Positions 10,849 through 40,854 of a stretch of 61,871 nucleotides of DNA are shown here, in pieces; position 1 is the stretch's first letter; each line of letters opens with the position of its first letter. The DNA is from an uncultured Elusimicrobia bacterium (GTDB lineage Bacteria; Elusimicrobiota; Elusimicrobia; UBA1565; UBA9628): positions 1 through 61,871 of the forward strand of contig CAYHNV010000001.1 of assembly GCA_964358065.1 (NCBI GenBank), written 5' to 3'. A program made the translations under genes and the position numbers. A model generated the notes under the pieces. It saw nothing but the letters and a program-made list of their open reading frames with translations. It did no database searches and was not told where the DNA came from.

Positions 10849-10880
10849 CTCGCACCGGTGCCAGTTTAGGACCTTATGGT

Positions 10881-11831
10881 TCATTTGGCTGCGGCGAAGA
10901 GCACGATGCCTTCCCAGCCGAACGCCGCGTAGGCCGCCCGGAAGAATGGATAGGCCGTCCAGGCCGCGGCGTCGAGGAGGGTCTGCTTGACCCCCACAAG
11001 AGACTTCACGAGGGCGGCTCGCGCGCCCGGCGCGGCGTCTCCTGCGGGGGCGTGACGGAGCTGATCCACGTTCAGGGCCTTCACGGCCAAGCCCAGGCGC
11101 AGGGAGTTGCGCAGTATCAGTTGGAGTACCGGCAGGGGGTAGGCCAACGGGCGGCACTCGATCACCGTGAAGCCCCCTCGCGTGAGCAGTCTCGAGAGGG
11201 CTCGCGCGTTCCAGCGGGTCAGGTGGTGAGGAGGCATGTCGACGTCCGTGATGCTCGGGTCCTTGAAGGGATCGAAGGTCCGGTCGCGGTTGGGCGTGCC
11301 GACGACCAGCAGGCCGCCGGGCTTGAGCAGGGATTTCGCCGACTTCAGCCATGCGAGAGGGTCGTCGAGGTGTTCGATGACCTGGAAGATCGTGACCGCG
11401 TCGAAGGAGGCGGGCGTCGCCCCGCGCGTGAATTCAGGCAGGCCGCCGTGAAAGACGTCAAAACCGCCCGCCTTCAGAGCCCTCGCGCGCGCGGAGTTGA
11501 AGTCCAGTCCCGCGACGGAGAAGCCGGCGGCGCGCGCGCGGTGCAGGAAGCCGCCGGAACCGCAGCCGACGTCCAGCAGGCGGCCCCCGGAAGGCACCTC
11601 CCGCCTCAGCAGAGCCAGAGCCTCATCGTATTCGAAGGTCATCGGATCCGTTTTCTCCGAGACCGAGACCGCGTAGAGGTCGGATTTTTGCTCGTAATAT
11701 CCCGAGCCTGGGTTTTTGAATGGGTCGCAGAATCCCGCGCCGCAGTCTGGGCAGTCATAGAGGCGGTACTCCGCCCAGCGGCGGACGAAGATCATCGGCG
11801 CGCGGGCCGCGCAGAGCGGGCACTCATCCAT
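10881..11831 (-). CDS. Class I SAM methyltransferase with N-terminal Zn-ribbon
   Basis: Motifs: MDECPLC...CPDCG (two CxxC knuckles), SAM motif LLDVGCGSGGFL, then IFQVIEHLDDP and PPHHLTRWN. It is a paralog of 14111-15130. Confidence 0.8.
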   Translation of the reverse strand: MDECPLCAARAPMIFVRRWAEYRLYDCPDCGAGFCDPFKNPGSGYYEQKSDLYAVSVSEKTDPMTFEYDEALALLRREVPSGGRLLDVGCGSGGFLHRARAAGFSVAGLDFNSARARALKAGGFDVFHGGLPEFTRGATPASFDAVTIFQVIEHLDDPLAWLKSAKSLLKPGGLLVVGTPNRDRTFDPFKDPSITDVDMPPHHLTRWNARALSRLLTRGGFTVIECRPLAYPLPVLQLILRNSLRLGLAVKALNVDQLRHAPAGDAAPGARAALVKSLVGVKQTLLDAAAWTAYPFFRAAYAAFGWEGIVLFAAAK

Positions 11832-12873
11832 GGAAGTGGTCCAGCAGGCGCCAGACCCAGCCCTGCATCCAGGCGGGATAGATCGACTCGTAGCGCGTGC
11901 AGTCCCGGCAGGCCTTGGGATAATCCCCGCGCGCGTGGCGCTCGAGCAAACCTCGGATCGGGGCTCCGGACAGGATATCCGACAGCGGTTCGGCGTGCAC
12001 GTCGCCGATGATCAGCGTGGCTTCGATGTCCCGGCAGCAGCAGGCATTGACGCGGCCGTCGGCCAGGACCGTGGGGCCGGTGAGCAGGCGCCGGCAGGGA
12101 CCGCGGTGGATGGGCGGGGGCTTGGGGACCAGGCCGGCCTGCCGGAGGGTCGTCTCCGAGATGTCGCCGCCCCAGTTGTCGAAATCATCGACGGCGTCCA
12201 CGGTGAGGAGGCCTTCGCGTTCTCTCCTGATGAGATAGTCCCAGAACTCGCCGCTCTCGCTGCCCTTGGGCGCGCGCAGGTTGACCTGGATGGAGATCTT
12301 GGAGCGTTTAAGCTCCTTCGCGTCGATGAGGCCGCGGATATTGGCGACCGCCTCATCGAACTTGTCGACGCCCATGACCCGGTGGTAGGTCTTGCGGTCA
12401 AAGCCGCCGAAGGAGCAGAAGATCGTGAAGCGGCCGTCGTAAGCGACCAGGCGCTCGAGGATGTCCGGCTTCATCAGGATCGCGTTCGTGTAGAAATGGA
12501 AGCCCTTCACCTCGGCGCGGGAGGCGAGGAAGTCCAGCCTTTCTAAGAGATGCCGGTCCACGAACGGGTCGCCGACGATGGGAGTCAAGTCCACCTCGGC
12601 GTGTCCCAACGCCAGGTATTGCTCCACCACGCGCTGGAAGGTCTCCATCGGCATGGTCGCTTTCGAGCGTTTCATCTGCGGGTATGCGCAGAAGACGCAG
12701 CGCGCGTTGCAGATATTGGTCCCCTCGATGTAAAGGGTGTGCGGACGGATCCGCATCAGCGCGTAACTAAGCAAGTCCCCGACCCGCTCCCGGGCGTCGG
12801 AGACTTCCCCCCGCAGCCGCGTGGGGACCGCAGCGCGCCACGCGGCCCTGGCTATTTTTGAGAAGACAGCCAT
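11824..12873 (-). CDS. Radical SAM protein with C-terminal SPASM/twitch-like Cys-rich domain
   Basis: Motifs: LYIEGTNICNARCVFCAY (CxxxCxxC), then GPCRRLLTGPTVLADGRVNACCCRD...GDYPKACRDCTRY as the auxiliary-cluster-type Cys pattern. It overlaps the downstream gene by 8 nt and the upstream gene by 22 nt. Confidence 0.8.
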   Translation of the reverse strand: MAVFSKIARAAWRAAVPTRLRGEVSDARERVGDLLSYALMRIRPHTLYIEGTNICNARCVFCAYPQMKRSKATMPMETFQRVVEQYLALGHAEVDLTPIVGDPFVDRHLLERLDFLASRAEVKGFHFYTNAILMKPDILERLVAYDGRFTIFCSFGGFDRKTYHRVMGVDKFDEAVANIRGLIDAKELKRSKISIQVNLRAPKGSESGEFWDYLIRREREGLLTVDAVDDFDNWGGDISETTLRQAGLVPKPPPIHRGPCRRLLTGPTVLADGRVNACCCRDIEATLIIGDVHAEPLSDILSGAPIRGLLERHARGDYPKACRDCTRYESIYPAWMQGWVWRLLDHFHG

Positions 12874-14114: not shown

Positions 14115-15130
14115 TGCTTCTCGTCCGGACGCAGACGTGCCAGGGTGTAAAGGTGGTTTCCGCAGTGCGGTCGGATGAGACGATAATACGTCTTCAGAAC
14201 AAGGGCCGCGGGAGCAAAAAGGACGAGGAAGACGGCTCGCGCCGCGTTCACGAGCTTCTGTCGGAACAGCTTATCGCTCCAAATTCCAGAGGGGGCTTTT
14301 GCGTCGCGGGCGTAGAGTTCGCTTAAAGTCGCGCCCTTTTGAGTCCCGCGGCCTCTGAAAAGGACCTGTTTTGCCAGCGCGATCAGGCCCGGCATCAAGC
14401 GGTAGAAGAAAAAATGATCCGAGAGGTAGCAGAGCTTGAGGGAGTCGGCTTCCTGGCGCAGCACCTCGAAGCCGGCGCGCTCCAGGAACCCTTTCAAGGC
14501 CTCGGGGGTCCAGCGCGTGAAGTGGTGCGGGGGATAGTCGTGTTCTTCGCGTCCCCAAGGCAGGGGCCGCAGACCGTTGGGCAGGGTGATCGCGACATGA
14601 GCACCGGGCCTGAGCAGGCTCTTGATCCGGCCCAGGAACCAGGATGGTTCCGGCGTGTGTTCGAGCACGTCGAAGAGGGTCGCCGTATCGAATTCGGCGG
14701 GCCGGCGGCCGGTGATGAAGTCGGAGAACTCCATGGCATGGATGTCGGCAAGGCCCTTGGCGCGGGCCTGGTCCGCGACGCGGTCGTCATAGTCGAAGCC
14801 CGTGACGGAGAATCCTCGTCGAGCGGCCAGTGTCAGGAAGCCGCCGTCGCCGCAGCCCACGTCCAGCAGACGTCCCCGGGGAAGTCGATCGGAGAAGAAC
14901 TGGCGGAAGCGCCAGTCCGTGTCCGGCGCGGGGCGTTTCTCCAGGCCGCGCAGCGGCGCGCAGGCGGCGTACCAATCAGCTCCGACCGCTTGCCGGGGTT
15001 CGGAGAAGACGACCCCGCAGGCGGGGCAGAGCAGAAGCCGGTAGGTCTTGGAGCCGATGCGGTCGAAGTGGTCCTCGACGAAGAGCGGTTGCGTCGTGGA
15101 GGAACAGGCCGGACACCCGGACGGTGTCAT
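14111..15130 (-). CDS. Class I SAM methyltransferase with N-terminal Zn-ribbon (paralog of 10881-11831)
   Basis: Motifs: CPAC...CPACG, LLDVGCGDGGFL, LFDVLEHTPEP and PPHHFTRWT. A hydrophobic C-terminal tail follows (AVFLVLFAPAALVL). Confidence 0.8.
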   Translation of the reverse strand: MTPSGCPACSSTTQPLFVEDHFDRIGSKTYRLLLCPACGVVFSEPRQAVGADWYAACAPLRGLEKRPAPDTDWRFRQFFSDRLPRGRLLDVGCGDGGFLTLAARRGFSVTGFDYDDRVADQARAKGLADIHAMEFSDFITGRRPAEFDTATLFDVLEHTPEPSWFLGRIKSLLRPGAHVAITLPNGLRPLPWGREEHDYPPHHFTRWTPEALKGFLERAGFEVLRQEADSLKLCYLSDHFFFYRLMPGLIALAKQVLFRGRGTQKGATLSELYARDAKAPSGIWSDKLFRQKLVNAARAVFLVLFAPAALVLKTYYRLIRPHCGNHLYTLARLRPDEKQ

Positions 15131-15738
15131 CCGATTTTGAGCGCGGAGAGGATGAACTGGACCCCGATGGCGGCCAGGAGAAGTCCCATCAGGCGCGTGA
15201 TGATGTTGATCAGCGTCGAGGAGATGCGGCTGGCGCCGCTGGCGGCCAAAGTCAGCGTGTAGTAGCTGATCAGGGCCACGGCGGCGATGCAGATGAAGAA
15301 GATGCCCTTGTGCGCCAGGGTGTCGGCCTTGCCGGCCAGCACGATGGAGGTGGTAATCGCGCCGGGACCTGCCAGCATGGGCACGGCCAGCGGAGTGATG
15401 GCGATGTCGTCCTTGCCGCGGCCCTCGGCGGTCTCCTCGGGAGTCTCGCGCAGGGCGGACTTCTGGGCGCGCAGCATGTCCAGCGCGGCGAGGAGCAGGA
15501 CCAGGCCGCCGGCCAGCTGGAAGGCGGCCAGAGTGATCCCGAAGAGCTTGAAGATTGAAGGCCCCAGCAGGGCGAAGATCGCCATCACTCCCGCGCAGGT
15601 CAGGCAGGCCGTGCGGGCCATGCGGCGGCGCTGGCCGGGCGTGTCTTTCTCCGTCATCGCGAGGAAGGTCGGGATGGCCGCGAAGGGGTCTACGATCGCG
15701 AACAGAGAACCGAAGGTCAGGAAGGCGTACTCAAGCAT
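15127..15738 (-). CDS. MarC-family (UPF0056) integral membrane protein
   Basis: Start taken at ATG 15738 (MLEYAFLTFGSLFAIVDPFAAIPTFLAMT, the typical MarC N-terminus). About 6 TM segments. It sits inside the glycan operon with 4- and 8-nt overlaps to its neighbours. Confidence 0.75.
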   Translation of the reverse strand: MLEYAFLTFGSLFAIVDPFAAIPTFLAMTEKDTPGQRRRMARTACLTCAGVMAIFALLGPSIFKLFGITLAAFQLAGGLVLLLAALDMLRAQKSALRETPEETAEGRGKDDIAITPLAVPMLAGPGAITTSIVLAGKADTLAHKGIFFICIAAVALISYYTLTLAASGASRISSTLINIITRLMGLLLAAIGVQFILSALKIG

Positions 15739-16726
15739 CGGTTCGACCGTTGCGCAGCCGGGCATAGACGTCCTGGAGGTCCAGGTACAGTTCCGGGCAG
15801 ACGAGGACCAGGGAAAGCGCTGCCGCTTTCATCAGCCGCCGCATCCCCCCATACTGCGCGACCGATTCGACCCAACGACGCTTGGCCGCGGGCCAGTCGC
15901 CGGCGTAGCGGGCCAGGAAGAGGTCGTCAAGGAGTTCCTCGGAGCGCCGGCGCCGCCGCGCCGCATCCGACAGATTCCGTCCGCTGCCCGAGAGAAGCCG
16001 GGCGAGTTCGCGGTCCAGCGCGGAGAGCGCCTTGCGATGCTCGCGGAGCTTCGCCGGGTCTTGTAATCGCCCCGCGTAGCGGTTGCCCGCGTGGACGCGG
16101 CGCCAAGCCAGGACCTCGGGGATGTTGCCGACCGGGGCATCGAGGATCGAGTTGTAAAGGTAGCTGTCGGCGCAGATGCGCAGGTCCTCGGGCACGGGGA
16201 GGAGCTTGCGCAGGACCGAGGCCCGGAAGCTCAAGCCCGTCGTGCCCGTGAAGACGCAGCTGCCCCGGAGGAAGTCCTCGGTGCTGAAGCGAGGCGGCAC
16301 GGAGGGGTAGTGCGCGCAGACCAGCTTGCCGTCCAGATCGACTTCCTGACACCAGTGCTGGACGATTCCCAGGTCCTTCTCGGCGTCGAAGCGCTCGAGG
16401 ACGCGGCTCAGTTTCGTTTCCTCCCACCAGTCGTCGCTGTCGAGCAGGCAGAAGATCTCCCCGCTTGCGGCGGCAAAGCCCGCGTTGAAGGCCGCAGCCT
16501 GTCCGCGGTTCTCCGTCAGGAGGACGGCGCGCACGCGGGGCGCGAACCGCGCCAGGACCTCGCGGGAGTCGTCAGTGGAGCCGTCGTCGACCGCGACGAT
16601 CTCGACTGTGTCCATCGGGAAGCGCTGGTCCAGCACGCTCTGGAGAGCATGGCCGAGGAAGCGGCCGTAGTTGTGGTTGTTGATGAGGACCGAGACCCGC
16701 GGTGCGTCATTGCCGAGTCCGCTCAT
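15731..16726 (-). CDS. GT2-family glycosyltransferase
   Basis: Motifs: VSVLINNHNYGRFLGHALQSVLDQ, VAVDDGSTDDS and CLLDSDDWW (DxD). Confidence 0.85.
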   Translation of the reverse strand: MSGLGNDAPRVSVLINNHNYGRFLGHALQSVLDQRFPMDTVEIVAVDDGSTDDSREVLARFAPRVRAVLLTENRGQAAAFNAGFAAASGEIFCLLDSDDWWEETKLSRVLERFDAEKDLGIVQHWCQEVDLDGKLVCAHYPSVPPRFSTEDFLRGSCVFTGTTGLSFRASVLRKLLPVPEDLRICADSYLYNSILDAPVGNIPEVLAWRRVHAGNRYAGRLQDPAKLREHRKALSALDRELARLLSGSGRNLSDAARRRRRSEELLDDLFLARYAGDWPAAKRRWVESVAQYGGMRRLMKAAALSLVLVCPELYLDLQDVYARLRNGRTDA

Positions 16727-17541: not shown

Positions 17542-17597
17542 GGAGGTAGTTTACTTGATTGTACAGCGGCCGATGCGTCGCGGAGGATTTTGGTACG

Positions 17598-20000
17598 ATG
17601 CCCCGACCGATGAGCCAAGCGCCGGAACTCTCCGTTGTCCTGCCGACCCTCGACGAGGCCCCGGGCCTGCGCGTCCTTCTGCCGCGTTTGAAGGCCCTTT
17701 TCGTGCGCCTCGGCGTGCGCGGGGAGGTTCTGGTCATCGACGGGGGCTCGCGCGACGAGACGACTGCGGTCGCCGCGGAGCACGGCGCGCGCGTGCTGCG
17801 TCAGAAGGGCCTCGGCTTCGGCTCGGCCGTGCGCGAGGGACTGCGGGCCGCCGGCGCCGAGTGGGTCGCGCTGATGGACGCGGACGGCTCCCACGCGCCC
17901 GAAGACCTCGAGCGCTTCTGGGCGCGGCGCCAGGAGGCGCGGCTGATCGTGGGCTCGCGCTACTGCCGGGGCGGCTCGGCGGACATGCCTTTGCTGCGCC
18001 AGGTCCTCAGCCGCACGCTCAATATGGTCACGCGGCGCGTGCTGGACCTGTCCGTGCGCGAGTCTTCGAGCGGCTTCCGGCTCTATCATGGGCCCTCCGC
18101 CCGGGCCGTGCCCAGCGTCGCGACGGATTTCGGGGTCCAGCAGGACCTCCTCGTCGGCATCCTCGCCGCGGGCGGACGGGTGGTCGAGGAGCCGATCCAT
18201 TACGCGCCGCGCGTGGGGGGGGGCTCGAAGGCGAACGCCTGGAAGCTGGCCCCGGCCTACATGTGTCTGCTCCTGCGTCTGAAGCCCCTGCGCGGCGGTT
18301 GGCGCGCCGAGGCGGGACTCTTCTGCGTGTTGGCCCTAGGGCTTGCCACGGGCCTGTGCGGCATCACAGGCGGCCTGCCGGGTCCGGCCCGCTGGCGGGC
18401 ACTTCCCGAGGGGCTTCATCAGTCTCCCGTCTTCGCGCGCAGCCTCGCCGACTCCTGGGGGCGTCTTTATCAGGAGATCAAAAAATCCCACAACGAGATG
18501 CGCGCCGACGAGCCTCGCACCTCGGTCCAAGGGGTCGTCGAGATCGCCCCGGGCTGGACCTTCCCTCCCGACGAGCTGGTCAATGCCGCGCGCGCCCTGC
18601 TGACACAGTCCGTGAATCCCGACGAGAAGAAGTCCTTCATCATCCTGGCGCAGATGCGGCCGTGGCGTCTGGAGTTCAAGCCCCTCTATGCCCAATACGG
18701 CGGCGCGTTCATCTATCCTCTCGGCGCCTTCCTGGGGGTGGCGCATCTGCTTCATCTGGCGCGACTGACGCCCGACCTGGCCTATTATCTGGCCGCGCCG
18801 GAGGCGATGGCCCGCCTCTACCTCCTCGGCCGCTTTTTCACGCTCTTCTTCCACCTGGGCACGCTCTGGTTGCTCTACGAGTTGGGACGCATCCTTTCCG
18901 GACGCCGGACCGGGACCGTGGCGGCCCTTCTTTGGGCCCTCGCCCCGGTCGCGATCGTCAACGTCCACGTCCTCAAGCCTCATCCTGTCGCGGCCTTCTT
19001 TTTCCTGGCCGGAGCCTTCTGCGTGGTGCGCGCGGTGGAGGAGGGGCGTTGGGTGGACTACCTCCTGGCCGGGCTCGGCATGGGGCTGGCGGCCGGCGGC
19101 AGCCTGGCCCTCGGCTACGGCCTCGCGGCACCTCTCATCGCGCGGGCGTGCCGCCGCGAGGGGCCCTGGCGAGCGCCCCTTCTCGGCACGGCCGTCGGGC
19201 TCGCGGTCGTGATCGTCACCAGTCCATTTCTCGTCTTCTCGCCTCGGGACTTCGCCTGGGAGCTCACCATCTACTCCCCGTCTCGTTTCGGCCTCTCTCT
19301 CGGGGGCTTGGCCGCCTTCATCTTCCGCGTCGTCCCGGAGGGGCTCGGGGCCGCGCTGGCCGCGCTGGCCGCGGCGGGCCTGGCGCGCGCCCTCTTCTCG
19401 GACGCGCGCCGCCGCGCAGCGGCCCTGCTCGCCCTCGGGGGGATTTTCGTCGTGCTGCTCCGCTTCCCGGAGATATCGGCCGGCACCGGTTGCCTGCGCC
19501 TGTACTACCCGGCCGCGGCCCTGGGCGTTCTCTTCGCCGCCGACCTCCTGTCCGCGCTCCACTCCCCGGCGCTGGCCGGGCTCCTGCTGGCGGGCGTCTT
19601 GGCCGACACGGGCCTGCGCGGTGCCGTCTATCTCGAGAACCTCCGCCGAGAGGCCGGGCCATCGTCGACGAAAGCCCTCGCCGCGGACTGGGTGGACGCG
19701 AACATCCAGGCCGGAGCCTCGGTCGGTCTCCTGCGTTATCCCGAACCCGCGCACACCCCGCCCTTCCGCTGGGACCGCCTGCGCCTAGTCGTCTTCGAGT
19801 CGTTCCGGGACCTAAAAGCGCGCCCCGTGCCGGAGTGGATCGTCGCCAGCGCCTCGGGTTGGGATGCCGTGGACGAGGGCCTGCGCAGCCGCTATGATGA
19901 GGCTCGGAGCTTCGCGCCGGCTCGCCTGCTGTGGGCTGCGCCGCGCGACGACTCCTTCTTTGCGGACGCCGGCATGACCGTCCAGAGGCGCCGACCATGA
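17598..20000 (+). CDS. Fusion protein: DPM1/GtrB-like GT2 polyprenyl-phosphate sugar synthase (N-terminal) plus GT-C-fold membrane glycosyltransferase (C-terminal)
   Basis: ATG 17598 (MPRPMSQAPELSVVLPTLDEAPG...). GT2 motifs are VIDGGSRDET and LMDADGSH. From about 18300 onward there are more than 10 hydrophobic segments, with an acidic first-loop motif (NPDEKKSF) and a PMT_2/ArnT-like look. The frame is uninterrupted throughout. Confidence 0.75.
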   Translation: MPRPMSQAPELSVVLPTLDEAPGLRVLLPRLKALFVRLGVRGEVLVIDGGSRDETTAVAAEHGARVLRQKGLGFGSAVREGLRAAGAEWVALMDADGSHAPEDLERFWARRQEARLIVGSRYCRGGSADMPLLRQVLSRTLNMVTRRVLDLSVRESSSGFRLYHGPSARAVPSVATDFGVQQDLLVGILAAGGRVVEEPIHYAPRVGGGSKANAWKLAPAYMCLLLRLKPLRGGWRAEAGLFCVLALGLATGLCGITGGLPGPARWRALPEGLHQSPVFARSLADSWGRLYQEIKKSHNEMRADEPRTSVQGVVEIAPGWTFPPDELVNAARALLTQSVNPDEKKSFIILAQMRPWRLEFKPLYAQYGGAFIYPLGAFLGVAHLLHLARLTPDLAYYLAAPEAMARLYLLGRFFTLFFHLGTLWLLYELGRILSGRRTGTVAALLWALAPVAIVNVHVLKPHPVAAFFFLAGAFCVVRAVEEGRWVDYLLAGLGMGLAAGGSLALGYGLAAPLIARACRREGPWRAPLLGTAVGLAVVIVTSPFLVFSPRDFAWELTIYSPSRFGLSLGGLAAFIFRVVPEGLGAALAALAAAGLARALFSDARRRAAALLALGGIFVVLLRFPEISAGTGCLRLYYPAAALGVLFAADLLSALHSPALAGLLLAGVLADTGLRGAVYLENLRREAGPSSTKALAADWVDANIQAGASVGLLRYPEPAHTPPFRWDRLRLVVFESFRDLKARPVPEWIVASASGWDAVDEGLRSRYDEARSFAPARLLWAAPRDDSFFADAGMTVQRRRP

Positions 20001-21880
20001 ACCGCCCTCTGAGCCTCGTCTCCCCGACTGAACCTTGCGTGACCCTGCGCGCGGCGGGGCCCGGCGACCTAGAACAGCTTCGTGTCTGGAAAAACGCCAA
20101 CAAGAATGGCTTCTTCTTCCAGGGAGACATCACCCCGGAGATGCAGAAGGCCTGGTATGGCTCGTACCTCCTGCGCCCCGAAGACTTCATGTTTGTCGTC
20201 GAGCATGAGGGCCGCAAGGTCGGGTGCATGGGCTTCCGGCTCCAGAAGGACGGCTCGGCCGATGTCTACAACATCATCGCCGCGCCCGGCGGCGCGGGCC
20301 GGGGGCTCATGAAGGCGGCGATGGCGCTGATGTGCGCCCACATCGCGGCGCATCACACCAAGGACATCGGCTGTCTGGTCGTGAAGGGCAACCCGGCCGC
20401 GGCTTTCTACGAGCATTGCGGCTTCAAGATCGTCGCCGACGGCGGCGACCACCACATCCTGAAGCTCGCCGAAGACCCCGTCGTCGTCCTCGGGGCGGGC
20501 TGCGCGGGCCTCATGGCCGCGCGCCGCCTGCGCGAGAAGGGACGGCCGGTCCTGCTTGTGGAGGCCGAGGACCATGTCGGGGGTCTGGCCGGGGGCATCG
20601 TGCTCGGAGGCGACGTCTACGAGTACGGTCCCCACGTCTTCCACACCACCGACGCCGAGATCCTCGCCGACATCAAGACCCTCATGGGGAAAGACCTTCT
20701 TCCATATGAACGGACGATCCAAATCAAGTTCCTGGGCAACTACTTCAAGTTTCCGCTCTCTATCCCCGACGTCCTGCTCAAGCTCCCGTTGACGACGGTC
20801 CTCCTCGCGGCGGGGAGCTTCGTCTATCACTTCGTCAAGGGCGCCTGGGCCAAGCCCGTGCAGGAGAACTCCGAGACCCTCCTCCAGCGCTACTACGGCG
20901 ACGTGCTCTACCGACTTTTTTTCAAGGACTACATCCAACGCGTTTGGGGCATTCCCCCTTCGGCCTTCTCCCCGTCATTCGCGCGCGAACGCATCCCGCG
21001 CCTGAACATTCTGGACTTTCTCGATAAGGTCGTTGCGGCGGCGCGCGATGTTTTCTCCTCCGGCGCGGTCATGAAGACGGAGGGCTACGTCGAGAAGTTG
21101 GAGGGGCAGCTCTGGACCACGAAGAAGGGCTTCTCCATGATCTGCGAGCGCATGGCCGCCGACGCCTTGAAGAAAGGCGCCCGGCTGCGTCTCTCCACCC
21201 GCGCCGTCGCGGTGCGCCGCGAAGGCGGGAAGGTCACGGCCGTCGAACTGGAGTATGGAGGCAAGAGAGAGATCGTGCCTTGCTCCGGGATCGTGAACAC
21301 GCTGGCCATCAACGACGCGGCGCGGATGTTCACGCCGCCCTTGGGGGACGCGGCGGCGGCGGCGGCCGAGGCGCTCCGCTTTCGGGCCATCGTCTTTGTC
21401 GGGCTCAAAGTCCGTCGGCCGAAGGTCCTGCGCGCCTCCTTCATGTACTTCCGCGAGCATTCCTTCAACCGCATCACGGACCTCGCGCACTTCGGCTTCC
21501 ACATGGACCCGCCCGGGACCACGCTGTTGGTGGCGGAGGTCGCCTGCGACACGAAGGACCCCATCTGGATGGACGAGGCCCTGGCGGTGGAGGCCGTGGT
21601 CGCCGACCTTGTCCGTGAGGGCATCCTCGCCCGCGCGGAGGTGGCCTCCTCGCATGTCTTCCGCGCCCGCCACGCCCACCCCATGTACACCCTGGGCTAC
21701 GAAGCGGCGCTCAAGACGCTTCTTGACGCCTTCGCGGGCCTGTCGAACGCCGAGACCGCGGGCCGCCAGGGGCGCTTCCAGTACGTGAACACGCACGTGG
21801 CCATGAAGATGGGCCTGGACGCCGCCGACCGCCTGGACGCGAAGCTTCCCCGCATGGACAATAACGGGGAAATGCGCTAG
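19997..21880 (+). CDS. Fusion protein: GNAT N-acetyltransferase (N-terminal) plus FAD/NAD(P)-binding oxidoreductase of the UGM/amine-oxidase type (C-terminal)
   Basis: The ATG at 19997 overlaps the upstream stop (ATGA). GNAT motifs are VVEHEGRKVGCMGF and GGAGRGLMKAAM...FYEHCGFKIV. The dinucleotide motif VVVLGAGCAGLMAARRL follows, then FFKDYIQRVWG (compare FxxYxxKxWG in UDP-galactopyranose mutases). Confidence 0.7.
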   Translation: MNRPLSLVSPTEPCVTLRAAGPGDLEQLRVWKNANKNGFFFQGDITPEMQKAWYGSYLLRPEDFMFVVEHEGRKVGCMGFRLQKDGSADVYNIIAAPGGAGRGLMKAAMALMCAHIAAHHTKDIGCLVVKGNPAAAFYEHCGFKIVADGGDHHILKLAEDPVVVLGAGCAGLMAARRLREKGRPVLLVEAEDHVGGLAGGIVLGGDVYEYGPHVFHTTDAEILADIKTLMGKDLLPYERTIQIKFLGNYFKFPLSIPDVLLKLPLTTVLLAAGSFVYHFVKGAWAKPVQENSETLLQRYYGDVLYRLFFKDYIQRVWGIPPSAFSPSFARERIPRLNILDFLDKVVAAARDVFSSGAVMKTEGYVEKLEGQLWTTKKGFSMICERMAADALKKGARLRLSTRAVAVRREGGKVTAVELEYGGKREIVPCSGIVNTLAINDAARMFTPPLGDAAAAAAEALRFRAIVFVGLKVRRPKVLRASFMYFREHSFNRITDLAHFGFHMDPPGTTLLVAEVACDTKDPIWMDEALAVEAVVADLVREGILARAEVASSHVFRARHAHPMYTLGYEAALKTLLDAFAGLSNAETAGRQGRFQYVNTHVAMKMGLDAADRLDAKLPRMDNNGEMR

Positions 21881-21891
21881 CCTATCGCCGG

Positions 21892-22995
21892 ATGATCAAC
21901 GTTTTCGGCTCTCTGATGGGCCCGGAGGAGCTCGAGGAGGTCCGCACCAGTCTTGAGGCCCAGTGGATCGGCATCGGACCCAAGACCGCCGCTTTCGAGC
22001 AGGGTTTCGCGCAGCGCCTGGGGCTTCCCGGCTTCGTCCTGCTTGATTCCGGCTCCAACGCCCTGCACCTGGCGGTCAAGCTCCTCGACCTGCCTCCGGG
22101 CTCGGACATCCTGGTCCCCTCCTTCACCTGGATCGCCTGCGCGCATGCGGTCGTCCTGTCCGGCCATCGTCCCGTCTTCGCGGACGTGGACCTCGACACA
22201 CACAACATCACGCTGAAGACGGCCTCGGCGGCGCTCACGCCCAAGACCAAGGCCGTCATGGTCGTCCACTACGGGGGCCTGCCGGTCCGCGTCGATGAGA
22301 TCAAAACCTTGGGCCTGCCGATCATCGAGGACGCCGCCCATGCCGTGGATTCCCGTCTCAAGGACGCGGCCTGCGGCGGCATGGGTGAGGTCGGCATCTT
22401 CAGTTTCGACGCGATCAAGAACCTCGCGATGGGCGAGGGGGGCGGACTGACCGCCAAGGACCCCCAGCGCCTGGCGCGCGCGCGGCAGCTGCGCTACTGC
22501 GGCATCGGCAAGTCCGGCTTCGAGGCTTCGGCGTCGAAGGATCGCTGGTGGGAATACAACGTCACCGACTTCTTCCCGAAGATGCTGCCCAGCGACATCG
22601 CGGCCTCCATCGGCTTGGCCCAGCTGCGCAAGTTGGGCGCCATGCAGGCTTACCGCCGGAAGATATGGGAGCTCTACCAGAAAGAGTTCGCCTCCCTCGG
22701 CTGGCTCGCGCGGCCCCAGGACGCTCCGGCCGACGCCACTCATTCTTTTTTCACCTACTGCGTGCGGGTTCCGGCGGGCCGGCGAGACGCCTTCGCAAAA
22801 TACCTCTACCAGAACGGGATTTACACCACCTTGCGCTACCACCCGCTGCACATGAACAAGATATACGGCTCCTCAGCCCGGTTGCCGGTCTGTGAGCGCT
22901 TGAACGAGGAAGCCTTGAGCCTGCCTCTCCATCCGGGCCTCAAGGACGGCGATGTCGCCAAGATCGTGGACATGGTCAAGGCTTGGAAGGGATGA
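21892..22995 (+). CDS. DegT/DnrJ/EryC1/StrS-family PLP-dependent sugar aminotransferase
   Basis: Motifs: FEQGFAQRLG, DSGSNALHLA, PIIEDAAHAV and FSFDAIKNL (the PLP lysine). Confidence 0.88.
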   Translation: MINVFGSLMGPEELEEVRTSLEAQWIGIGPKTAAFEQGFAQRLGLPGFVLLDSGSNALHLAVKLLDLPPGSDILVPSFTWIACAHAVVLSGHRPVFADVDLDTHNITLKTASAALTPKTKAVMVVHYGGLPVRVDEIKTLGLPIIEDAAHAVDSRLKDAACGGMGEVGIFSFDAIKNLAMGEGGGLTAKDPQRLARARQLRYCGIGKSGFEASASKDRWWEYNVTDFFPKMLPSDIAASIGLAQLRKLGAMQAYRRKIWELYQKEFASLGWLARPQDAPADATHSFFTYCVRVPAGRRDAFAKYLYQNGIYTTLRYHPLHMNKIYGSSARLPVCERLNEEALSLPLHPGLKDGDVAKIVDMVKAWKG

Positions 22996-23015
22996 ACCTG
23001 TCAAGGAGTCGATCA

Positions 23016-23474
23016 ATGGGAAAGAAGATGTTTGTCGGCGGCTTGCCTTACGAAGTGACGGAGAGTCAATTGAGCGAGATGTTCTCCGCCTGCGGGCAGG
23101 TCGTGAGCGCGAAAGTGATCAAGGACCGCGACACCGGCCTCTCCAAGGGCTTCGGCTTCGTGGAGATGGGCAGTGACGCCGAGGCGGCGGCCGCGATTAT
23201 GAAGCTCCATAACAGTCCCGTGGGAGCGCGGCGCATCATCGTCAACGAAGCCCGTCCCATGGAGGCGCGCCCGAGCGGCGGTTTCGGCGAAAAGAAGAGC
23301 TTCGCCGGGCGGCCCGGGGGTTTTGCTCCCCGTCCCGGCGACGACAAGCCCGGAGGCCGCGGCGACCGCGGCGACCGCGGCGGCAAACGGGGCGGCTTCG
23401 ATGGCAAGCGCGGCGGCTTTGGCGGCAAGAAGGGCGGCAAGGGCCGCCGGGATGAGAGCGGCGACTCTTGGTGA
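23016..23474 (+). CDS. RRM-type RNA-binding protein with RGG/Gly-rich C-terminal tail
   Basis: AAGGAG at 23003-23008 lies 7 nt upstream of ATG 23016. MFVGGLPY is RNP-2 and KGFGFVEM is RNP-1. The tail reads GGRGDRGDRGGKRGGFDGKRGGFGGKKGGKG. Confidence 0.85.
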   Translation: MGKKMFVGGLPYEVTESQLSEMFSACGQVVSAKVIKDRDTGLSKGFGFVEMGSDAEAAAAIMKLHNSPVGARRIIVNEARPMEARPSGGFGEKKSFAGRPGGFAPRPGDDKPGGRGDRGDRGGKRGGFDGKRGGFGGKKGGKGRRDESGDSW

Positions 23475-23480
23475 GTTTGC

Positions 23481-24635
23481 TTATTTGACGCGGTGGTAGA
23501 AGAGGCCGAGGGCGAAGGAGACGAACACGCACTGGACTCCGGTCAGTACCGCGGCGATGGCGAGGATGGCCGCATCCAAGCGGAGCGTGTCGGGACCGCG
23601 AGGAAGGCGGTGGCCGTAGTATGAGATCGGCAGGTAGAAGAGGACGGCGCCGCCGAGCAGCGCCAACGCGCAGCCCAGGATGAGCCCTTTCTCCAGGCTG
23701 AAGGTCCGGTGCAGGAAGGCGCGGAGATGGCTGCGCGCGTCGTAGCGCTCCTGGTAGTCTGCTTCCTGGGCCACCACTCCAAGACCCAGGATGCTCGTGC
23801 CCATGAGCCAGAAGAGGAGCGCGGTCAGCATGTGCCGTGAGGTCAGCCAACCGAGCGCGTTCGGGGCCGCCCAATCGCGCGCCGTCAGTCCCAGCAGCAG
23901 CAGTCCGCCCACGGCCGAGCAGAAGACACCAGGGAAGAAGAACGTTCCCATGGGCGAGAAGAGGAGTATAAAGCGCAGATGACGCCAGCCGTCGCGCCAG
24001 GTGCGCAGATGCGGGGGCCGGTCGCGCAGATCCTTATAAAGATTGCAGGGGACCTCGGCGATCTTGAGGCTGATGAGAGAGGCTTTCACCAGCATCTCGG
24101 TGGCGAACTCCATGCCGTCGGCCTTCAGGCCCATGCGTTCGAAAGCATCGCGGCGCAGCGCGCGCATGCCGCAGTTGGTATCGCCCAGGCCCGCGCCGAA
24201 GAGCAGGTTCATGACGGCGGTCAGGACCGGGGTGCCCAGGTAGCGGTGCAGGAAGGGCATGGCCCCCGGGGCGATCACGCCCTGGAAGCGGTTGCCGACC
24301 ACGAGGTCGAAGCCCGCGCGCAGTTTCTCCACGTAAGCGCCGCATTCCTCGAAATCGTAGGAGCCGTCCGCATCCGCCATCAAAAGGAAGCGACCGCGCG
24401 CGGCGGAAAAACCGCCGCGCAGGGCCCGGCCGTAACCTCGGCCCTCGACCGGCACGACCCGGGCGCCCAGGGACTCGGAGATCTCCCGCGTCCGGTCGGT
24501 CGAGCCGTTGTCGGCGACCACGACTTCGCCGGGGACGGCGAGCGATGAGATCGCCTTGAGCGCCTTCTTGACGCAATGGGAGATCGTCTTCTCTTCATCG
24601 AGCGCGGGGATCACGATGGACAGCTCGATTTCCAT
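23481..24635 (-). CDS. DPM1/GtrB-like GT2 polyprenyl-phosphate sugar synthase with C-terminal TM helices
   Basis: Internal ATG 24635 (MEIELSIVIPALDEE). Motifs are VADNGSTDRT and LMADADGSYD, followed by about 4 C-terminal TM segments. It is a clear paralog of the N-domain of 17598-20000. Confidence 0.85.
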   Translation of the reverse strand: MEIELSIVIPALDEEKTISHCVKKALKAISSLAVPGEVVVADNGSTDRTREISESLGARVVPVEGRGYGRALRGGFSAARGRFLLMADADGSYDFEECGAYVEKLRAGFDLVVGNRFQGVIAPGAMPFLHRYLGTPVLTAVMNLLFGAGLGDTNCGMRALRRDAFERMGLKADGMEFATEMLVKASLISLKIAEVPCNLYKDLRDRPPHLRTWRDGWRHLRFILLFSPMGTFFFPGVFCSAVGGLLLLGLTARDWAAPNALGWLTSRHMLTALLFWLMGTSILGLGVVAQEADYQERYDARSHLRAFLHRTFSLEKGLILGCALALLGGAVLFYLPISYYGHRLPRGPDTLRLDAAILAIAAVLTGVQCVFVSFALGLFYHRVK

Positions 24636-24696
24636 AAGAATGAGGTTTCTCCGGTGGGCCGTGGAACGAATGCACTTTAGTATACTGGGGCCCAGA

Positions 24697-26385
24697 ATGA
24701 AATTCAAGCGCGCTTTTGTCGCCGGGTTGAAGCGCCATCGCGCCTTCCTGACGGTCGTTCCCCCGGCGGCGCTGCTGCGGCTGGTGGGGATCGGCTACGG
24801 TCTGCCGGCGGTGTTCAACGGCGACGAACCCCATCACGTCAACGTGGCCATGTCCTTCGGCCGCGGCAGCCTCAACCCAGGGATATTCAAATATCCGACG
24901 CTGTGGATGTACGTCCTGTTCGCGGCCTATGCGGGCGGGTTTATCCTGTGGTCGGGAGCGGGGTTGCTGGGATCCGCGCAGGAATTCGGGGAGCTGTTCG
25001 TCTGGCGCCACTCGGGTTTCTACCTTGCCGGCCGCCTGCTTTCGACCGCGTTCTCCCTGGGGGGATTATGGTGGGTCTATCGCGCGGCCGGCCTGGCGGG
25101 GGGCCGCCCGTCGGGAGTGTTGGCCGCCGCTCTTCTCGCCGTCTCCGCCCCGATGATCGAGTCGGCTCATTCGGTCAAGCCGGACTGTCTGATGTTCTTC
25201 TTCGCCGCCTGGTCCTGGTGGCAGGCGATGGCGTACTTGGAACTCGGCGGCTGCCGTCGACTGCTGCTGTGCGCGGCGGCGGTGGGGCTGTCCGTATCGA
25301 GCCAGTACACGGCGGCGCCGCTGGCCGTTCTAGTCCCGGTGGTCTGGCTGGCGCGCCGCCGCCTGCGTCCCGGCCGGGCCGATGGAGCGGGAGTTCTGGC
25401 GGCGGCTCTGGCGGTCGTGGGACTGCTCTTCTTGGCGGGGACTCCATTCGCCCTGCTGGACGCGCCGACTTTCGCTCGGGATGTGCGAGACAGTTGGGCC
25501 GCGCACGGTGCGGGCCAAGCCATGACGGCGGGCTGGCGTCCGTTGTTCAATCTGATGGGATTCTCCGCGTCTTGGCCGCTGGGGGCCGTCGTGCTGTCGG
25601 CGGGGATCGTCCGGCTTGGGCGGCGCAGTCCGGCGCACGCCTTGTGCCTGTTGCTGCCTTGCGCGGCGACCGTCCTCTTCTTCTCCCGTCAGGCCGTCGG
25701 GGGCAACGCCCGGTATCTGTACAGCGTATTTCCCGCCGTCGCGATCCTTTCCGCGTTGGGGGTTCGGACGTTGGTCGGACGTGGAGGAGTCTTCCCGGTG
25801 GGCATTCGGCTGAGGTGGGTGGTCTTCCTTCTGCTGTTGTTGCCGGGAGCCCGGGCGAGTTGGAGCTTCGACCGGGAACTCCTTCTTCCCGACACGCGTA
25901 CGTTGGCATCCCTATGGGTTGGTGAGAACCTGCCGGCCGGCACGAGGATCCTCTCCGATCATGAGGCGGACGCGCCGCGCATCGCGATGAGCCGCGATTT
26001 CGCGCTTCACCTTTATGAACTGATGAAGGCCTCCGGTCATCCGCGCCGGCGGTACTATCAGTTGATGGCCTCCGGCCATCCGGGCGGCGGCTATGAGGTC
26101 TATCAGGTCCATCGGGCGGCGGCGGAGCTGTTAAGCGGGCCCTGGCACGCGCAGTGGTCCGCGGCCGGGCGACCGGTGATGGATGTCCGGGAGGGACTCG
26201 ACGTCGCTCGGAAGGCCGGCGTCGAGGTGGTGATCCTGACCAGCTTCGGCTTGGCCAGGAACGAGAGCGAGCCTTACGTGCTTCAGACCCGCTCACAGGG
26301 GCGTCTGCTGTCCGAGTTCCGGCCCGAGACGGGGAAGATCCGTGGTCCCCATATCGAGATCTACCGCGTCGGGTCGGAGAGATGA
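24697..26385 (+). CDS. GT-C-fold membrane glycosyltransferase (ArnT/PMT_2-like)
   Basis: ATG 24697 (MKFKRAFVAGL...), with an alternative ATG at 24670. It has the first-loop motif VFNGDEPHHVN, more than 10 TM segments, and a soluble C-terminal domain. It is divergent from the GT2 at 23481-24635. Confidence 0.75.
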   Translation: MKFKRAFVAGLKRHRAFLTVVPPAALLRLVGIGYGLPAVFNGDEPHHVNVAMSFGRGSLNPGIFKYPTLWMYVLFAAYAGGFILWSGAGLLGSAQEFGELFVWRHSGFYLAGRLLSTAFSLGGLWWVYRAAGLAGGRPSGVLAAALLAVSAPMIESAHSVKPDCLMFFFAAWSWWQAMAYLELGGCRRLLLCAAAVGLSVSSQYTAAPLAVLVPVVWLARRRLRPGRADGAGVLAAALAVVGLLFLAGTPFALLDAPTFARDVRDSWAAHGAGQAMTAGWRPLFNLMGFSASWPLGAVVLSAGIVRLGRRSPAHALCLLLPCAATVLFFSRQAVGGNARYLYSVFPAVAILSALGVRTLVGRGGVFPVGIRLRWVVFLLLLLPGARASWSFDRELLLPDTRTLASLWVGENLPAGTRILSDHEADAPRIAMSRDFALHLYELMKASGHPRRRYYQLMASGHPGGGYEVYQVHRAAAELLSGPWHAQWSAAGRPVMDVREGLDVARKAGVEVVILTSFGLARNESEPYVLQTRSQGRLLSEFRPETGKIRGPHIEIYRVGSER

Positions 26386-29604: not shown

Positions 29605-30050
29605 TCGACGGCGTCACCATCCGCCCCTTACGCCAGATCCCGGACGAGCGCGGCAAGGTCATGCACATGCTGAGGCGCGACGATCCATGGTATGAAGAGT
29701 TCGGAGAGATCTATTTCTCCTGCGTCTATCCGGGCGCGATCAAGGCGTGGCATCTGCACAGGAGCATGATCCTCTCTTACGCGGTCGTCAGCGGTGCGAT
29801 CAAGCTGGTCTTATACGATGCCCGCTCCCGCTCCAAGACCAAGGGGATGCTTCAGGAGGTATTCACCGGAGAGTCCCAGTACTCGCTGATCCGGGTCCCT
29901 CCCGGCGTCTGGAACGGCTTCAAAGGGCTCGGCGAGACGATGTCGATCGTGGCCAACTGCGCCTCCGAGCCTCACGATCCCCAAGAGATCGTCCGTCTCG
30001 ACCCCTCGTCCAAGAAGATCCCCTACGACTGGGCGCTCAAGAATGGGTAA
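29601..30050 (+). CDS. RmlC-like cupin sugar-nucleotide epimerase (dTDP-4-dehydrorhamnose 3,5-epimerase family, short form)
   Basis: ATG 29601 (MIDGVTIRPLRQIPDERGKVMHMLR). Motif: IKAWHLHRSMILSYAVVSGAIKLVLYDARSRSKTKG. About 149 aa. Confidence 0.75.
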   Translation: MIDGVTIRPLRQIPDERGKVMHMLRRDDPWYEEFGEIYFSCVYPGAIKAWHLHRSMILSYAVVSGAIKLVLYDARSRSKTKGMLQEVFTGESQYSLIRVPPGVWNGFKGLGETMSIVANCASEPHDPQEIVRLDPSSKKIPYDWALKNG

Positions 30051-34260: not shown

Positions 34261-34281
34261 GGATTAGTACAATGACCGCCC

Positions 34282-39829: not shown

Positions 39830-39839
39830 TCCATCTGTT

Positions 39840-40853: not shown

Positions 40854-40854
40854 C

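Follow-up and report, generated by a model that had tools for sequence, protein, structure and literature searches.

GtrABC-type systems cover O-antigen, LTA/WTA, and streptococcal rhamnan side chains. The accessible portions of the literature on them describe a common logic in which a GT2 synthase acts first, its lipid-linked product is flipped, and a GT-C transferase follows (PMC11127046, PMC4944223). Those portions, including the two cited papers, mention no GT2::GT-C fusion, and the portions of the broader literature on GT2/GT-C systems that were accessible to us likewise yielded no natural fusion of this kind, only engineered fusions, GacI-GacJ, and Ppm1. That the two steps are normally performed by separate proteins, as the original prediction for the present locus had it, is true. 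In the Arn pathway, an N-acylated amino sugar is attached to undecaprenyl phosphate inside by a GT2 enzyme, ArnC, and transferred outside by a GT-C enzyme, ArnT; the two are distinct polypeptides, and ArnC carries two transmembrane (TM) helices of its own. Among the DPMS classes, the catalytic domain of type II human DPM1 is devoid of TM helices and anchored by a partner, DPM3. The type III Pyrococcus furiosus DPMS (PfDPMS) joins its GT2 domain to a GtrA-like four-TM domain, and a 2026 proposal assigns the flipping of the product, Dol-P-Man, to its TM helices (PMC12992685). In Mycobacterium tuberculosis, the TM-less mycobacterial PPM synthase forms one polypeptide with a membrane partner (Ppm1, Rv2051c); in Mycobacterium smegmatis, the two are separate, interacting proteins (Ppm1/Ppm2) (PMC3485146). 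More generally, the identity of the flippases for polyprenyl-phosphate sugars and the supply of donors to GT-C enzymes are poorly resolved.

A GT2::GT-C fusion in Elusimicrobia

In a stretch of 61,871 nucleotides from an uncultured Elusimicrobia bacterium (contig CAYHNV010000001.1; here termed the window), we characterized a gene that encodes both types of glycosyltransferase in one polypeptide.

17581 to 17586, + strand: Shine-Dalgarno-like GGAGGA, read off the sequence, with the ATG at 17598 11 nt after it
17598 to 20000, + strand: whole GT2::GT-C fusion gene (single ORF, GC3, Pfam, AlphaFold, homologs)

The reading frame extends without interruption for 800 codons from this ATG to a stop at 19998 to 20000, and an ORF finder returns a single plus-strand ORF spanning 17559 to 20000. 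Its GC3 of 0.86 is uniform across the entire ORF and in the usual range for genes of the window. Pfam assigns residues 12 to 163 to Glycos_transf_2 (E = 9e-20; 71.7 bits versus a cut-off of 23.3) and residues 412 to 546 to PMT_2 (E = 1e-8; 35.9 bits versus a cut-off of 26.1). The full-length AlphaFold model of the fusion protein has a pLDDT of 94.2 and a pTM of 0.92, with pLDDT values of 81 to 98 over junction residues 200 to 260. About 58 full-length fused homologs, 40 to 87% identical and collinear at the junction, are present in independent Elusimicrobia metagenome assemblies. The covalent GT2 plus GT-C fusion that had been proposed is thus borne out by the one ORF, the two Pfam matches, and the collinear homologs. 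All four motif strings on which the proposal drew (LSVVLPTLDE, VIDGGSRDET, LMDADGSH, and NPDEKKSF) occur in the translation. A search of other genomes for the same fusion recovered these approximately 58 orthologs, with no frameshift between the domains. The fusion is real and conserved.

The N-terminal GT2 domain

17598 to 18236, + strand: cytoplasmic GT-A catalytic domain, residues 1 to 213, of the DPM1/ArnC/GtrB clade (profile and Foldseek)
17877 to 17885, + strand: D94-A-D96 (DxD) donor/metal motif, inside DADGSH, aligning to 89-DADLQH-94 of PfDPMS

Residues 1 to 232 constitute a GT2 of the DPM1/ArnC/GtrB type without a TM helix of its own, as hydropathy reveals no hydrophobic TM segment. 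Profile searches identified PfDPMS (5mlz; E = 1.8e-35) as its closest solved relative, with ArnC (E = 5e-21 to 4e-19) and GtrB structures next, and the same three are the top Foldseek matches of the full-length model; the proposed assignment to the polyprenyl-phosphate-type GT2s is therefore upheld for the N-terminal approximately 230 aa. D94, D96, H99, R121, R134, S138, R205, and K211 correspond to PfDPMS D89, D91, H94, R117, R131, S135, R202, and K208, which are ligands of the donor/metal and of the Dol-P phosphate (PMC5526996). The first three are present in all fused homologs, and the acceptor-phosphate residues R121, R134, and S138, together with R205 and K211 of the acceptor loop, are retained in 55 to 59 of about 59 sequences. 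Two PfDPMS ligands are not retained, Gln93 being replaced by Ser and Lys178 by Gly (G/S among the homologs). Eukaryotic DPM1 likewise has Ser at the position of Q93. Helices 132 to 149 and 214 to 232 of the model align with the PfDPMS interface helices IFH1 and IFH2. The residue conservation and the profile and Foldseek matches suggest that the domain is a polyprenyl-phosphate glycosyltransferase.

The junction, the GT-C domain, and the predicted topology

18237 to 18293, + strand: interface helix, residues 214 to 232, following the RxxGxSK acceptor loop and running into TM1 (model; PfDPMS IFH2 alignment)
18300 to 18368, + strand: GT-C TM1, residues 235 to 257 (hydropathy peak 1.99)
18369 to 18695, + strand: long first extracytoplasmic loop with juxtamembrane helices, residues 258 to 366 (model; placed outside by the positive-inside rule)
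18618 to 18626, + strand: P341-D342-E343, candidate catalytic acidic motif
18696 to 19652, + strand: GT-C transmembrane core, residues 367 to 685, with the PMT_2 match (Pfam; Foldseek)
18966 to 18983, + strand: invariant H457-x-x-K460-P461-H462 motif (alignment of relatives)
19653 to 19997, + strand: C-terminal alpha/beta domain, residues 686 to 800, predicted to be periplasmic (strands and helices of the model at 691 to 798)

The junction retains a short linker in the approximately 58 homologs, comprising the RxGGxSK loop, the interface helix (four K/R and no D/E), and TM1; unfused orthologs start at the position equivalent to TM1 (e.g., P0057 and P0071). The pTM of the full-length model suggests that the two domains sit in a fixed orientation to each other.

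A profile built from 57 relatives of the GT-C half retrieved no PDB sequence even at E ≤ 10, so a comparison of folds was needed. As the full-length query was dominated by GT-A matches, Foldseek was rerun with a separate model of residues 233 to 800 (pLDDT 95, pTM 0.94). All 26 PDB matches at E ≤ 0.001 are GT-C enzymes (TM-score 0.34 to 0.47), including ALG9/12, STT3, ArnT, AglB, AftA/D, Pmt4, DPY19, and EmbC, confirming for the C-terminal approximately 570 aa the GT-C fold that had been foreseen. ALG9/12, STT3, ArnT, AglB, and Pmt4 rank within one to two orders of magnitude of each other with similar TM-scores, and PMT_2, the sole family match of this half (35.9 bits), is a generic model. Accordingly, Foldseek, profile, and Pfam comparisons reveal no affinity to ArnT (GT83) or PMT (GT39) over other GT-C families.

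The acidic motif predicted in the first outer loop is found there as P341-D342-E343, with the loop placed by hydropathy and charge. This motif, R412, HxxKPH, and R634 are invariant in all 78 fused and unfused sequences. E. coli ArnT too has a PDE after TM1. The lysine of K361-P362, considered as a counterpart of ArnT K85, was rejected, as it is Glu in most relatives.

On the basis of hydropathy and charge, the positively charged loops 434 to 439, 516 to 525, and 599 to 607 all lie on the GT2 side of the membrane, and the PDE motif, HVLKPHP, and the C-terminal domain on the opposite side, the last of these placed by helix counting and charge distribution. This topology fits the anticipated two-step scheme, with the GT2 domain inside and the Pro-Asp-Glu loop and C-terminal domain outside. 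Its fold and motifs suggest that the GT-C domain uses a lipid-phosphate-linked sugar donor on the outer face.

Gene neighborhoods and paralogs in the window

19997 to 21880, + strand: GNAT acetyltransferase fused to a UDP-galactopyranose-mutase (UGM)-like flavoprotein, downstream (Pfam Acetyltransf_1 plus Amino_oxidase/NAD_binding_8)
21892 to 22995, + strand: DegT-family sugar aminotransferase (Pfam DegT, E = 1e-84)
23481 to 24635, - strand: stand-alone GT2 paralog whose C-terminal part has four TM helices (Pfam, NCBIfam, hydropathy peaks)
24697 to 26385, + strand: stand-alone GT-C paralog, divergently transcribed (Pfam PMT_2)
32261 to 34260, + strand: second TM-less GT2 translationally coupled to a GT-C gene (Pfam; start-codon positions)

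The GNAT-flavoprotein gene is translationally coupled to the fusion gene through an ATGA overlap; in the PDB it matches UGMs best (E = 1.8e-16), and its homologs adjoin the GT-C gene in 16 to 18 related loci. Of the partners of the GT-C gene, the DegT gene (top PDB matches TlmJ, 5uid, 4.8e-87, and ArnB, 2e-55) is the best conserved, with 75 to 92% identity in 17 related loci, whether fused or unfused. Overall, DegT, GNAT, and the flavoprotein lie alongside the GT-C gene in 16 to 22 loci. Genes for GT9 heptosyltransferase-like and Wzy_C/O-antigen-ligase-like proteins also recur nearby, GT9 in SAR11 too.

The stand-alone GT2 at 23481 to 24635 is indeed a paralog of the fused GT2 domain, as had been noted (33% identity over 156 aa; E = 4e-18). 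Its four TM helices are not assignable to a GtrA-like flippase domain, with no Pfam GtrA match at E ≤ 0.1. The divergent GT-C paralog is 31% identical to the fusion protein over the PMT_2 core (E = 6e-6). In the coupled pair, the GT2 occupies 32261 to 33046 and lacks a TM segment, and the GT-C extends from the ATG at 33043 to 34260; related loci carry the same triad of TM-less GT2, GT-C, and Wzy_C/TPR gene. Thus, the other GT2/GT-C pairs of the window include one translationally coupled and one divergent. Altogether, at least three more DPM1-like GT2s and three or four more GT-C-like proteins are encoded in the window, and cross-talk with these may occur.

Pfam searches of nearly all genes of the window detected no small flippase of the GtrA, ArnE/F, or a similar type, and four annotated related loci (one with an unfused and three with fused orthologs) contain no small flippase gene. 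The sole flippase-type gene of the window is Wzx-like (319 to 1857). A 128-aa ORF at 59611 to 59997 was considered as a GtrA candidate and rejected; with a single hydrophobic segment, at the N terminus, preceding a Cys, it resembles a lipoprotein.

The locus resembles the Arn pathway in its ArnB-like DegT enzyme, the Pro-Asp-Glu after TM1, and the matches of the C-terminal model to ArnT (5f15/5ezm; Foldseek, E about 1e-5). However, it lacks equivalents of ArnA, ArnD, and ArnE/F, with a GNAT in place of the formyltransferase. Further, the first outer loop of the fusion protein has an insertion of about 80 residues, and its NCBIfam scores are all far below the equivalog cut-offs. The GtrABC systems share with it the relationship of GtrB to the GT2 domain, but here the first and third components are one polypeptide and no GtrA-like second component is nearby.

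Fused, unfused, and split relatives

In the immediate family of the window protein, 58 of 78 members (about three quarters) are fused; among the best 150 family representatives, only about 14 are. In the tree of the GT-C domain, a rough neighbor-joining tree without support values, unfused orthologs of 560 to 590 aa and fused orthologs interleave, and this alternation is at odds with one ancient fusion defining a clade. The "family 39" name that unfused relatives carry at NCBI is automatic.

In two loci (L025 and L027) a separate gene for a TM-less 238-aa GT2 (E = 1e-57 to 1e-59) accompanies an unfused GT-C ortholog; a third (L028) has a contig-truncated copy (E = 8e-26), and two others (L021 and L033) have similar copies (E = 1.7e-41 and 2.9e-61). 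In the SAR11 relatives, retrieved by patterns that included Pro-Asp-Glu, the GT-C gene is directly followed by a 226- to 227-aa GT2 gene. Many unfused orthologs (e.g., L001 and L017 to L019) have no similar GT2 within 8 to 10 kb, indicating that the pairing is not obligatory in cis; the GT-C enzyme could take donors from other synthases. The interspersed unfused orthologs and the separate occurrence of the GT2 half in some loci show that the pathway can do without the covalent linkage. The fusion is evolutionarily optional.

Nor is it unique, as independent, uncharacterized GT2 plus PMT_2 and GT87 plus GT2 fusions occur in other phyla. P0101 and P0102 (741 to 764 aa; the latter named Thermoanaerobaculia by its source) combine GT2 and PMT_2, as do P0103, P0107, P0108, and P0154, all but the last with YkcB_C; in P0104 and P0105, GT87 precedes GT2. 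Their GT-C domains differ in belonging to other subfamilies, so that only the GT2 part aligns (25 to 29% coverage), and fused members are few in the P0103 family, at 4 of the 120 best matches.

Functional prediction and alternatives

Our preferred reading, which we consider likely, is that the protein is a bifunctional inner-membrane glycosyltransferase, a synthase covalently docked on its GT-C consumer in a three-component periplasmic glycosylation system. It would unite components 1 and 3 of the GtrB/GtrA/GtrC, ArnC/ArnEF/ArnT, and Dpm1/PMT scheme. Judging from the conserved residues, the cytoplasmic GT-A domain would move the sugar from a nucleotide sugar onto undecaprenyl phosphate (Und-P). 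Since the GT2 domain lacks TM helices and its last interface helix enters TM1, the GT-C domain can be seen as its membrane anchor. A separate protein would then flip the lipid-linked sugar, a step for which the fusion gene does not account. Finally, as its fold and motifs suggest, the GT-C domain would use its outer Pro-Asp-Glu loop to pass the sugar on to an acceptor in the envelope. The DegT, GNAT, and flavoprotein neighbors point to an Arn-like logic and to an N-acetylated amino sugar as the probable sugar; LPS or another surface glycan is the probable acceptor, as the GT9 and Wzy_C/O-antigen-ligase-like neighbors suggest. The fusion would ensure 1:1 stoichiometry and colocalization with no new chemistry, making covalent a partnership that in relatives is noncovalent or merely genetic, where the genes are adjacent, translationally coupled, or split.

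This arrangement recalls type II DPM1 in its TM-less, partner-anchored catalytic domain. However, in contrast to the DPMS classes, the anchoring partner is the presumed downstream GT-C consumer, covalently attached, with the GT-C domain taking the place of the GtrA-like domain of PfDPMS. The alternation of fused and split forms parallels that of Ppm1, whose six-TM membrane domain is N terminal and not a GT-C glycosyltransferase, whereas here the membrane domain is C terminal and presumably consumes the product.

A different, rather unlikely reading is that one domain merely anchors the other and the two active sites serve different pathways: another GT-C enzyme of the locus would use the Und-P-sugar that the GT2 domain makes, and the fused GT-C would be fed from elsewhere. 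The frequent absence of an orthologous GT2 near unfused orthologs and the several other GT2 and GT-C genes of the window are compatible with this reading, as is the precedent of mycobacterial Ppm1, whose fused membrane partner is not the consumer of its product (PMC3485146). However, purifying selection acts strongly on both active sites, and the synthase and transferase are genetically linked, being fused here and split within a locus or adjacent in relatives. The split pair, the SAR11 adjacency, and the independent fusions match the donor/consumer prediction.

The suggestion that the fusion implies substrate channeling and possibly a built-in flipping route gains no support from the comparison with unfused orthologs and separate GT2 halves. 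In its strongest form, it envisages a self-contained synthase-flippase-transferase that moves the Und-P-sugar along its own TM domain to its own outer active site without a separate flippase, the GT-C membrane domain standing in for the GtrA-like one in type III DPMS. The C-terminal TM domain proposed to flip Dol-P-Man in PfDPMS (PMC12992685) has been lost from the GT2 domain, the high full-length pTM suggests a rigid assembly, and the lack of a small flippase gene in the window and the four annotated neighborhoods points the same way. Yet flippases are often encoded elsewhere, which makes their absence in cis weak evidence, and the alternation of fused and unfused orthologs, with few representatives fused, indicates that the pathway works without covalent coupling. 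GT-C enzymes are not known to flip their own donors, and we consider such a self-contained machine improbable. Because the fusion is optional, it points to a physical partnership rather than to a new transport mechanism.

Still less probable is that one domain is a degenerate noncatalytic remnant, leaving the protein effectively monofunctional. Ser542, where 76 of 78 relatives have Asn, and the missing equivalents of PfDPMS K178 and Q93 could be read in this way, but the remaining donor, metal, and acceptor-phosphate ligands checked in the GT2 domain are retained down to 40% identity, and the GT-C motifs are invariant. A frameshift or a chimeric join of two adjacent genes, in assembly or sequencing, has a negligible chance of being the origin of the fusion and is excluded by the same collinear junction and linker in about 58 independent homologs from different studies and assemblers, in line with the uniform GC3 and the confident model across the junction.

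Implications

The fusion alone does not change the accepted mechanism. It does provide a Rosetta stone argument for physical docking of TM-less DPM1-like synthases on the GT-C enzymes that they feed, and in genomes rich in both it offers a means of matching orphan GT-C enzymes to their donor synthases. As a single-chain synthase/transferase with a pLDDT of 94 and intact active-site residues, the protein is also an attractive target for cryo-EM and reconstitution of the lipid-intermediate route. In Elusimicrobia, with distant relatives in SAR11, the fusion marks an Arn-like modification of the envelope, probably with an acetamido sugar on LPS.

A single gene encodes a GT2 and a GT-C domain

ORF finding places the fused gene in a single plus-strand frame (17559-20000), in which an ATG at 17598, 11 nt 3' of a GGAGGA motif, yields a product of 800 residues, and the TGA stop (19998-20000) forms an ATGA overlap with the start of the next gene. 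The GC3 value of 0.86 across the entire ORF is similar to that of the remaining genes of the window. Pfam searches recovered, above their gathering scores, a Glycos_transf_2 domain (residues 12-163; E = 9e-20) and a PMT_2 domain (residues 412-546; E = 1e-8). The original prediction of a fusion at 17598-20000 is thus correct in its coordinates, and all four peptide strings that it quoted are found in the translation; its assignment of an N-terminal GT2 and a C-terminal GT-C domain is likewise correct.

It had also proposed a search for the same fusion elsewhere. Among 99 close relatives retrieved from 5.8 billion protein clusters, about 58 are full-length fused proteins (approximately 790-830 aa, 40-87% identity, 99% query coverage), nearly all with precomputed PF00535 and PF13231 annotations; all of those with a source name come from Elusimicrobia metagenome-assembled genomes. 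The window protein itself is matched at 100% identity by one partial cluster entry. When one genome of each species was scanned, 36 Elusimicrobia loci emerged, and reanalysis of their ORFs showed that both domains share one reading frame in 14 (L002 and L004-L016); they are also in one frame in L026, at a contig end, and in L003 the GT2 domain starts in a separate, overlapping frame. Relatives share a short junction of conserved layout, in which an RxGGxSK loop leads through one helix into TM1; AlphaFold modeled it with a pLDDT of 81-98. Because the fused homologs are collinear and the junction is both conserved and confidently modeled, a frameshift or chimeric join can be excluded for practical purposes.

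The N-terminal domain is a predicted DPM1-like synthase

The family profile matched the Pyrococcus furiosus dolichyl-phosphate mannose synthase (PfDPMS; 5mlz) over residues 4-245 (E = 1.8e-35), followed by ArnC (E = 5e-21 to 4e-19) and GtrB (E of about 1e-18), and the top three Foldseek matches of the full-length model are likewise PfDPMS, ArnC, and GtrB. Residue equivalences were obtained by reading the HMMER alignment against the published roles of PfDPMS residues.

Residues of the fusion protein, their PfDPMS equivalents, and the roles of the latter (PMC5526996)
D94-A-D96; D89-A-D91; donor/metal motif
H99; H94; donor sugar contact
R121; R117; Dol-P phosphate ligand
R134; R131; Dol-P phosphate ligand
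S138; S135; Dol-P phosphate ligand
R205; R202; acceptor loop
K211; K208; acceptor loop

These donor and acceptor positions are kept in 55-59 of about 59 fused homologs. The equivalent of PfDPMS Q93 is a serine in the window protein, as in eukaryotic DPM1, and that of K178 is Gly or Ser. Since hydropathy analysis found no hydrophobic segment in the GT2 domain and its second interface helix (214-232) runs straight into TM1 (235-257), we predict that it is a TM-less, DPM1-like polyprenyl-phosphate glycosyltransferase anchored by the domain that follows.

The C-terminal domain adopts a GT-C fold

A sequence profile search retrieved no PDB match to the GT-C domain. Modeling residues 225-800 on their own with AlphaFold (pLDDT 95.0; pTM 0.94) nevertheless supports the predicted fold: all 26 Foldseek matches at an E of ≤0.001 are GT-C enzymes, including ALG9, ALG12, STT3, ArnT, AglB, AftD, AftA, Pmt4, DPY19, and EmbC, with TM-scores of 0.34-0.47. 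As no one family prevails among them, we rejected an assignment to ArnT or PMT proper; the model instead points to a divergent GT-C domain. Invariant in all 78 fused and unfused relatives are P341-D342-E343 (PDE, the candidate catalytic acidic motif), R412, H457, K460, P461, and R634. One TM helix has at its end a conserved N-P-Y/F-L motif; at residue 542 (19221-19223), which belongs to this motif, 76 of 78 relatives carry Asn but the window protein carries Ser.

Topology, whose prediction had likewise been proposed, was derived from hydropathy, helix positions, and charge, with mutually consistent results. The Arg-rich loops 434-439, 516-525, and 599-607 are predicted to be cytoplasmic, like the GT2 domain, whereas the 110-residue first loop with its PDE motif, the loop containing HVLKPHP, and the α/β domain at the C terminus (686-800) are predicted to be outside, an arrangement that would correspond to that of ArnT and PMT.

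Fused and split forms are intermixed

Unfused orthologs (547-608 aa, 41-55% identity) start exactly at TM1. A rough neighbor-joining tree built from GT-C domains shows them scattered among the fused proteins, with P0060 lying within a fused clade, P0071 beside P0042, and P0079 beside P0044. Loci L025 and L027 carry the GT2 half as a gene of its own, 238 aa long and TM-less (E = 1e-57 to 1e-59), which in L025 lies at 14324-15037, with the GT-C gene at 9971-11752; split copies resembling these occur in L021 and L033, and that of L028 is cut off by the contig end (E = 8e-26). No similar GT2 lies within reach of the GT-C gene in L001 and L017-L019. Distant relatives (20-24% identity) that have the PDE and YGGAFIYP motifs in common are found in Pelagibacteraceae and other Alphaproteobacteria, where a GT-C gene of about 516-520 aa is directly followed by a TM-less GT2 gene of 226-227 aa (L040, L042, and L043); in L043, the single case whose upstream side was inspected, the pair comes after a gene resembling GT9 heptosyltransferases. 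The SAR11-type couple thus shows the pairing as two separate genes, in a phylum far removed from Elusimicrobia.

An exhaustive profile search gave 820 representatives of the family (50% identity clusters; E of ≤1e-30). Of the 150 top-scoring ones, about 14 are long proteins whose GT-C part begins near residue 230-250, and an N-terminal GT2 was confirmed in three of the more distant of these. Because unfused orthologs are intermixed with fused ones and the GT2 half is separate in some loci, the fusion appears to have formed or broken repeatedly. It is frequent only in the immediate family of the window protein.

Further pairs and the gene neighborhood

A surface-glycan locus occupies the first 37 kb of the window and codes for a Wzx-like flippase, a Bac_transf initiating transferase, methyltransferases, GT4, AsnB, GT9, several sugar-nucleotide enzymes, and a Wzy_C/TPR protein. 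The window holds the following neighbor of the fused gene and further GT2/GT-C pairs:

19997-21880, plus strand: GNAT domain fused to a UDP-galactopyranose mutase (UGM)-like FAD protein, ATGA-coupled to the GT2::GT-C gene
23481-26385: divergent pair of a GT2 with four TM segments and a GT-C
32261-34260, plus strand: TM-less GT2 (261 aa) and translationally coupled GT-C (405 aa), the GT2 overlapping the ATG at 33043
32261-36903, plus strand: triad of these two genes and a Wzy_C O-antigen ligase-like protein with TPR repeats (873 aa)
54524-57228, plus strand: GT2 (255 aa) translationally coupled to a 646-aa multi-TM protein, a possible fourth pair

The triad is conserved beside the fused gene in three related loci. 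The 646-aa protein, which has a soluble C-terminal domain and gives no Pfam match, is possibly a further unrecognized GT-C partner. Directly after the GT-C at 24697-26385, a multi-TM protein (26154-27848, plus strand) gives only a weak TMEM260-like match (E = 4e-4); with it, the GT-C-like genes of the window would number four or five.

The GNAT/flavoprotein gene is followed by a DegT aminotransferase gene, whose product is 75-92% identical among related loci, better conserved than the GT-C, and most similar to TlmJ and ArnB. All three functions co-occur with the GT-C gene, fused or unfused, in 16-22 related loci; in L001 and L044, GNAT and flavoprotein are separate genes with DegT between them. 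This association suggests an Arn-like logic, in which a keto sugar would be converted to an amino sugar and then an N-acetyl sugar, loaded as Und-P-sugar, and transferred outside. The GT9 and Wzy_C genes that recur near the GT-C gene make LPS a probable acceptor. Pfam scans of nearly all window genes, and four annotated related loci, revealed no gene for a flippase of the GtrA/ArnEF type.

The window contains several other genes of note. A MarC/NAAT-family six-TM protein (15127-15765, minus strand) has counterparts of 68-82% identity in 11 related loci, each time within a few kilobases of the GT-C gene; so close a link to a glycan locus is unusual for a supposed amino acid transporter. Mid-locus, flanked by the DegT gene and by the paralogous GT2 at 23481-24635, lies a gene (22983-23474, plus strand) for an RNA-binding protein of the RRM type whose tail is rich in Gly and Arg; it is conserved only in L003, the closest relative. 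A 743-aa protein (30043-32274, plus strand) combines an RmlD-like reductase domain with a second DegT aminotransferase, and its gene sits in a run of sugar-nucleotide genes comprising an NTP transferase (27845-28624), a 4,6-dehydratase (28540-29604), and a small dTDP-sugar isomerase/epimerase (29568-30050). A radical-SAM/SPASM protein (11824-12873, minus strand) within the locus and a 984-aa B12-binding radical-SAM protein (40825-43779, plus strand) adjoining another GT2 (39801-40853) hint at unusual sugar or lipid modifications.

Precedents and meaning of the fusion

Comparable architectures occur in GT-C subfamilies unrelated to that of the window, always with a DPM1-like GT2 part: GT2 plus PMT_2 (P0101 and P0102), GT2 plus PMT_2 plus YkcB_C (P0103, whose family is fused in only 4 of the 120 best matches), and GT87 followed by GT2 (P0104 and P0105). 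The GT2/GT-C architecture is therefore recurrent and already visible in database annotations. Full-text literature searches turned up no published description of such a fusion. The closest cases in print are mycobacterial Ppm1, which is fused to or split from a membrane partner (PMC3485146) that, unlike the partner here, is not a GT-C; the GacJ-GacI fusions; and PfDPMS, a GT2 joined to a GtrA-like TM domain, for which a 2026 study proposed that it flips the lipid-linked product that it makes (PMC12992685).

The original prediction had extrapolated from the fusion to substrate channeling and possibly a built-in flipping route. For the present family this extrapolation is unsupported, because close relatives manage without the covalent link, and we consider it very improbable that the fusion protein flips its own lipid-linked sugar. 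Most likely, DPM1-like synthases that lack TM segments act while docked on the GT-C enzyme that they feed, an association that is hard-wired here. Uncharacterized in the literature searched yet not rare in databases, the GT2::GT-C fusion can serve as a Rosetta stone and is a useful target for structural work.
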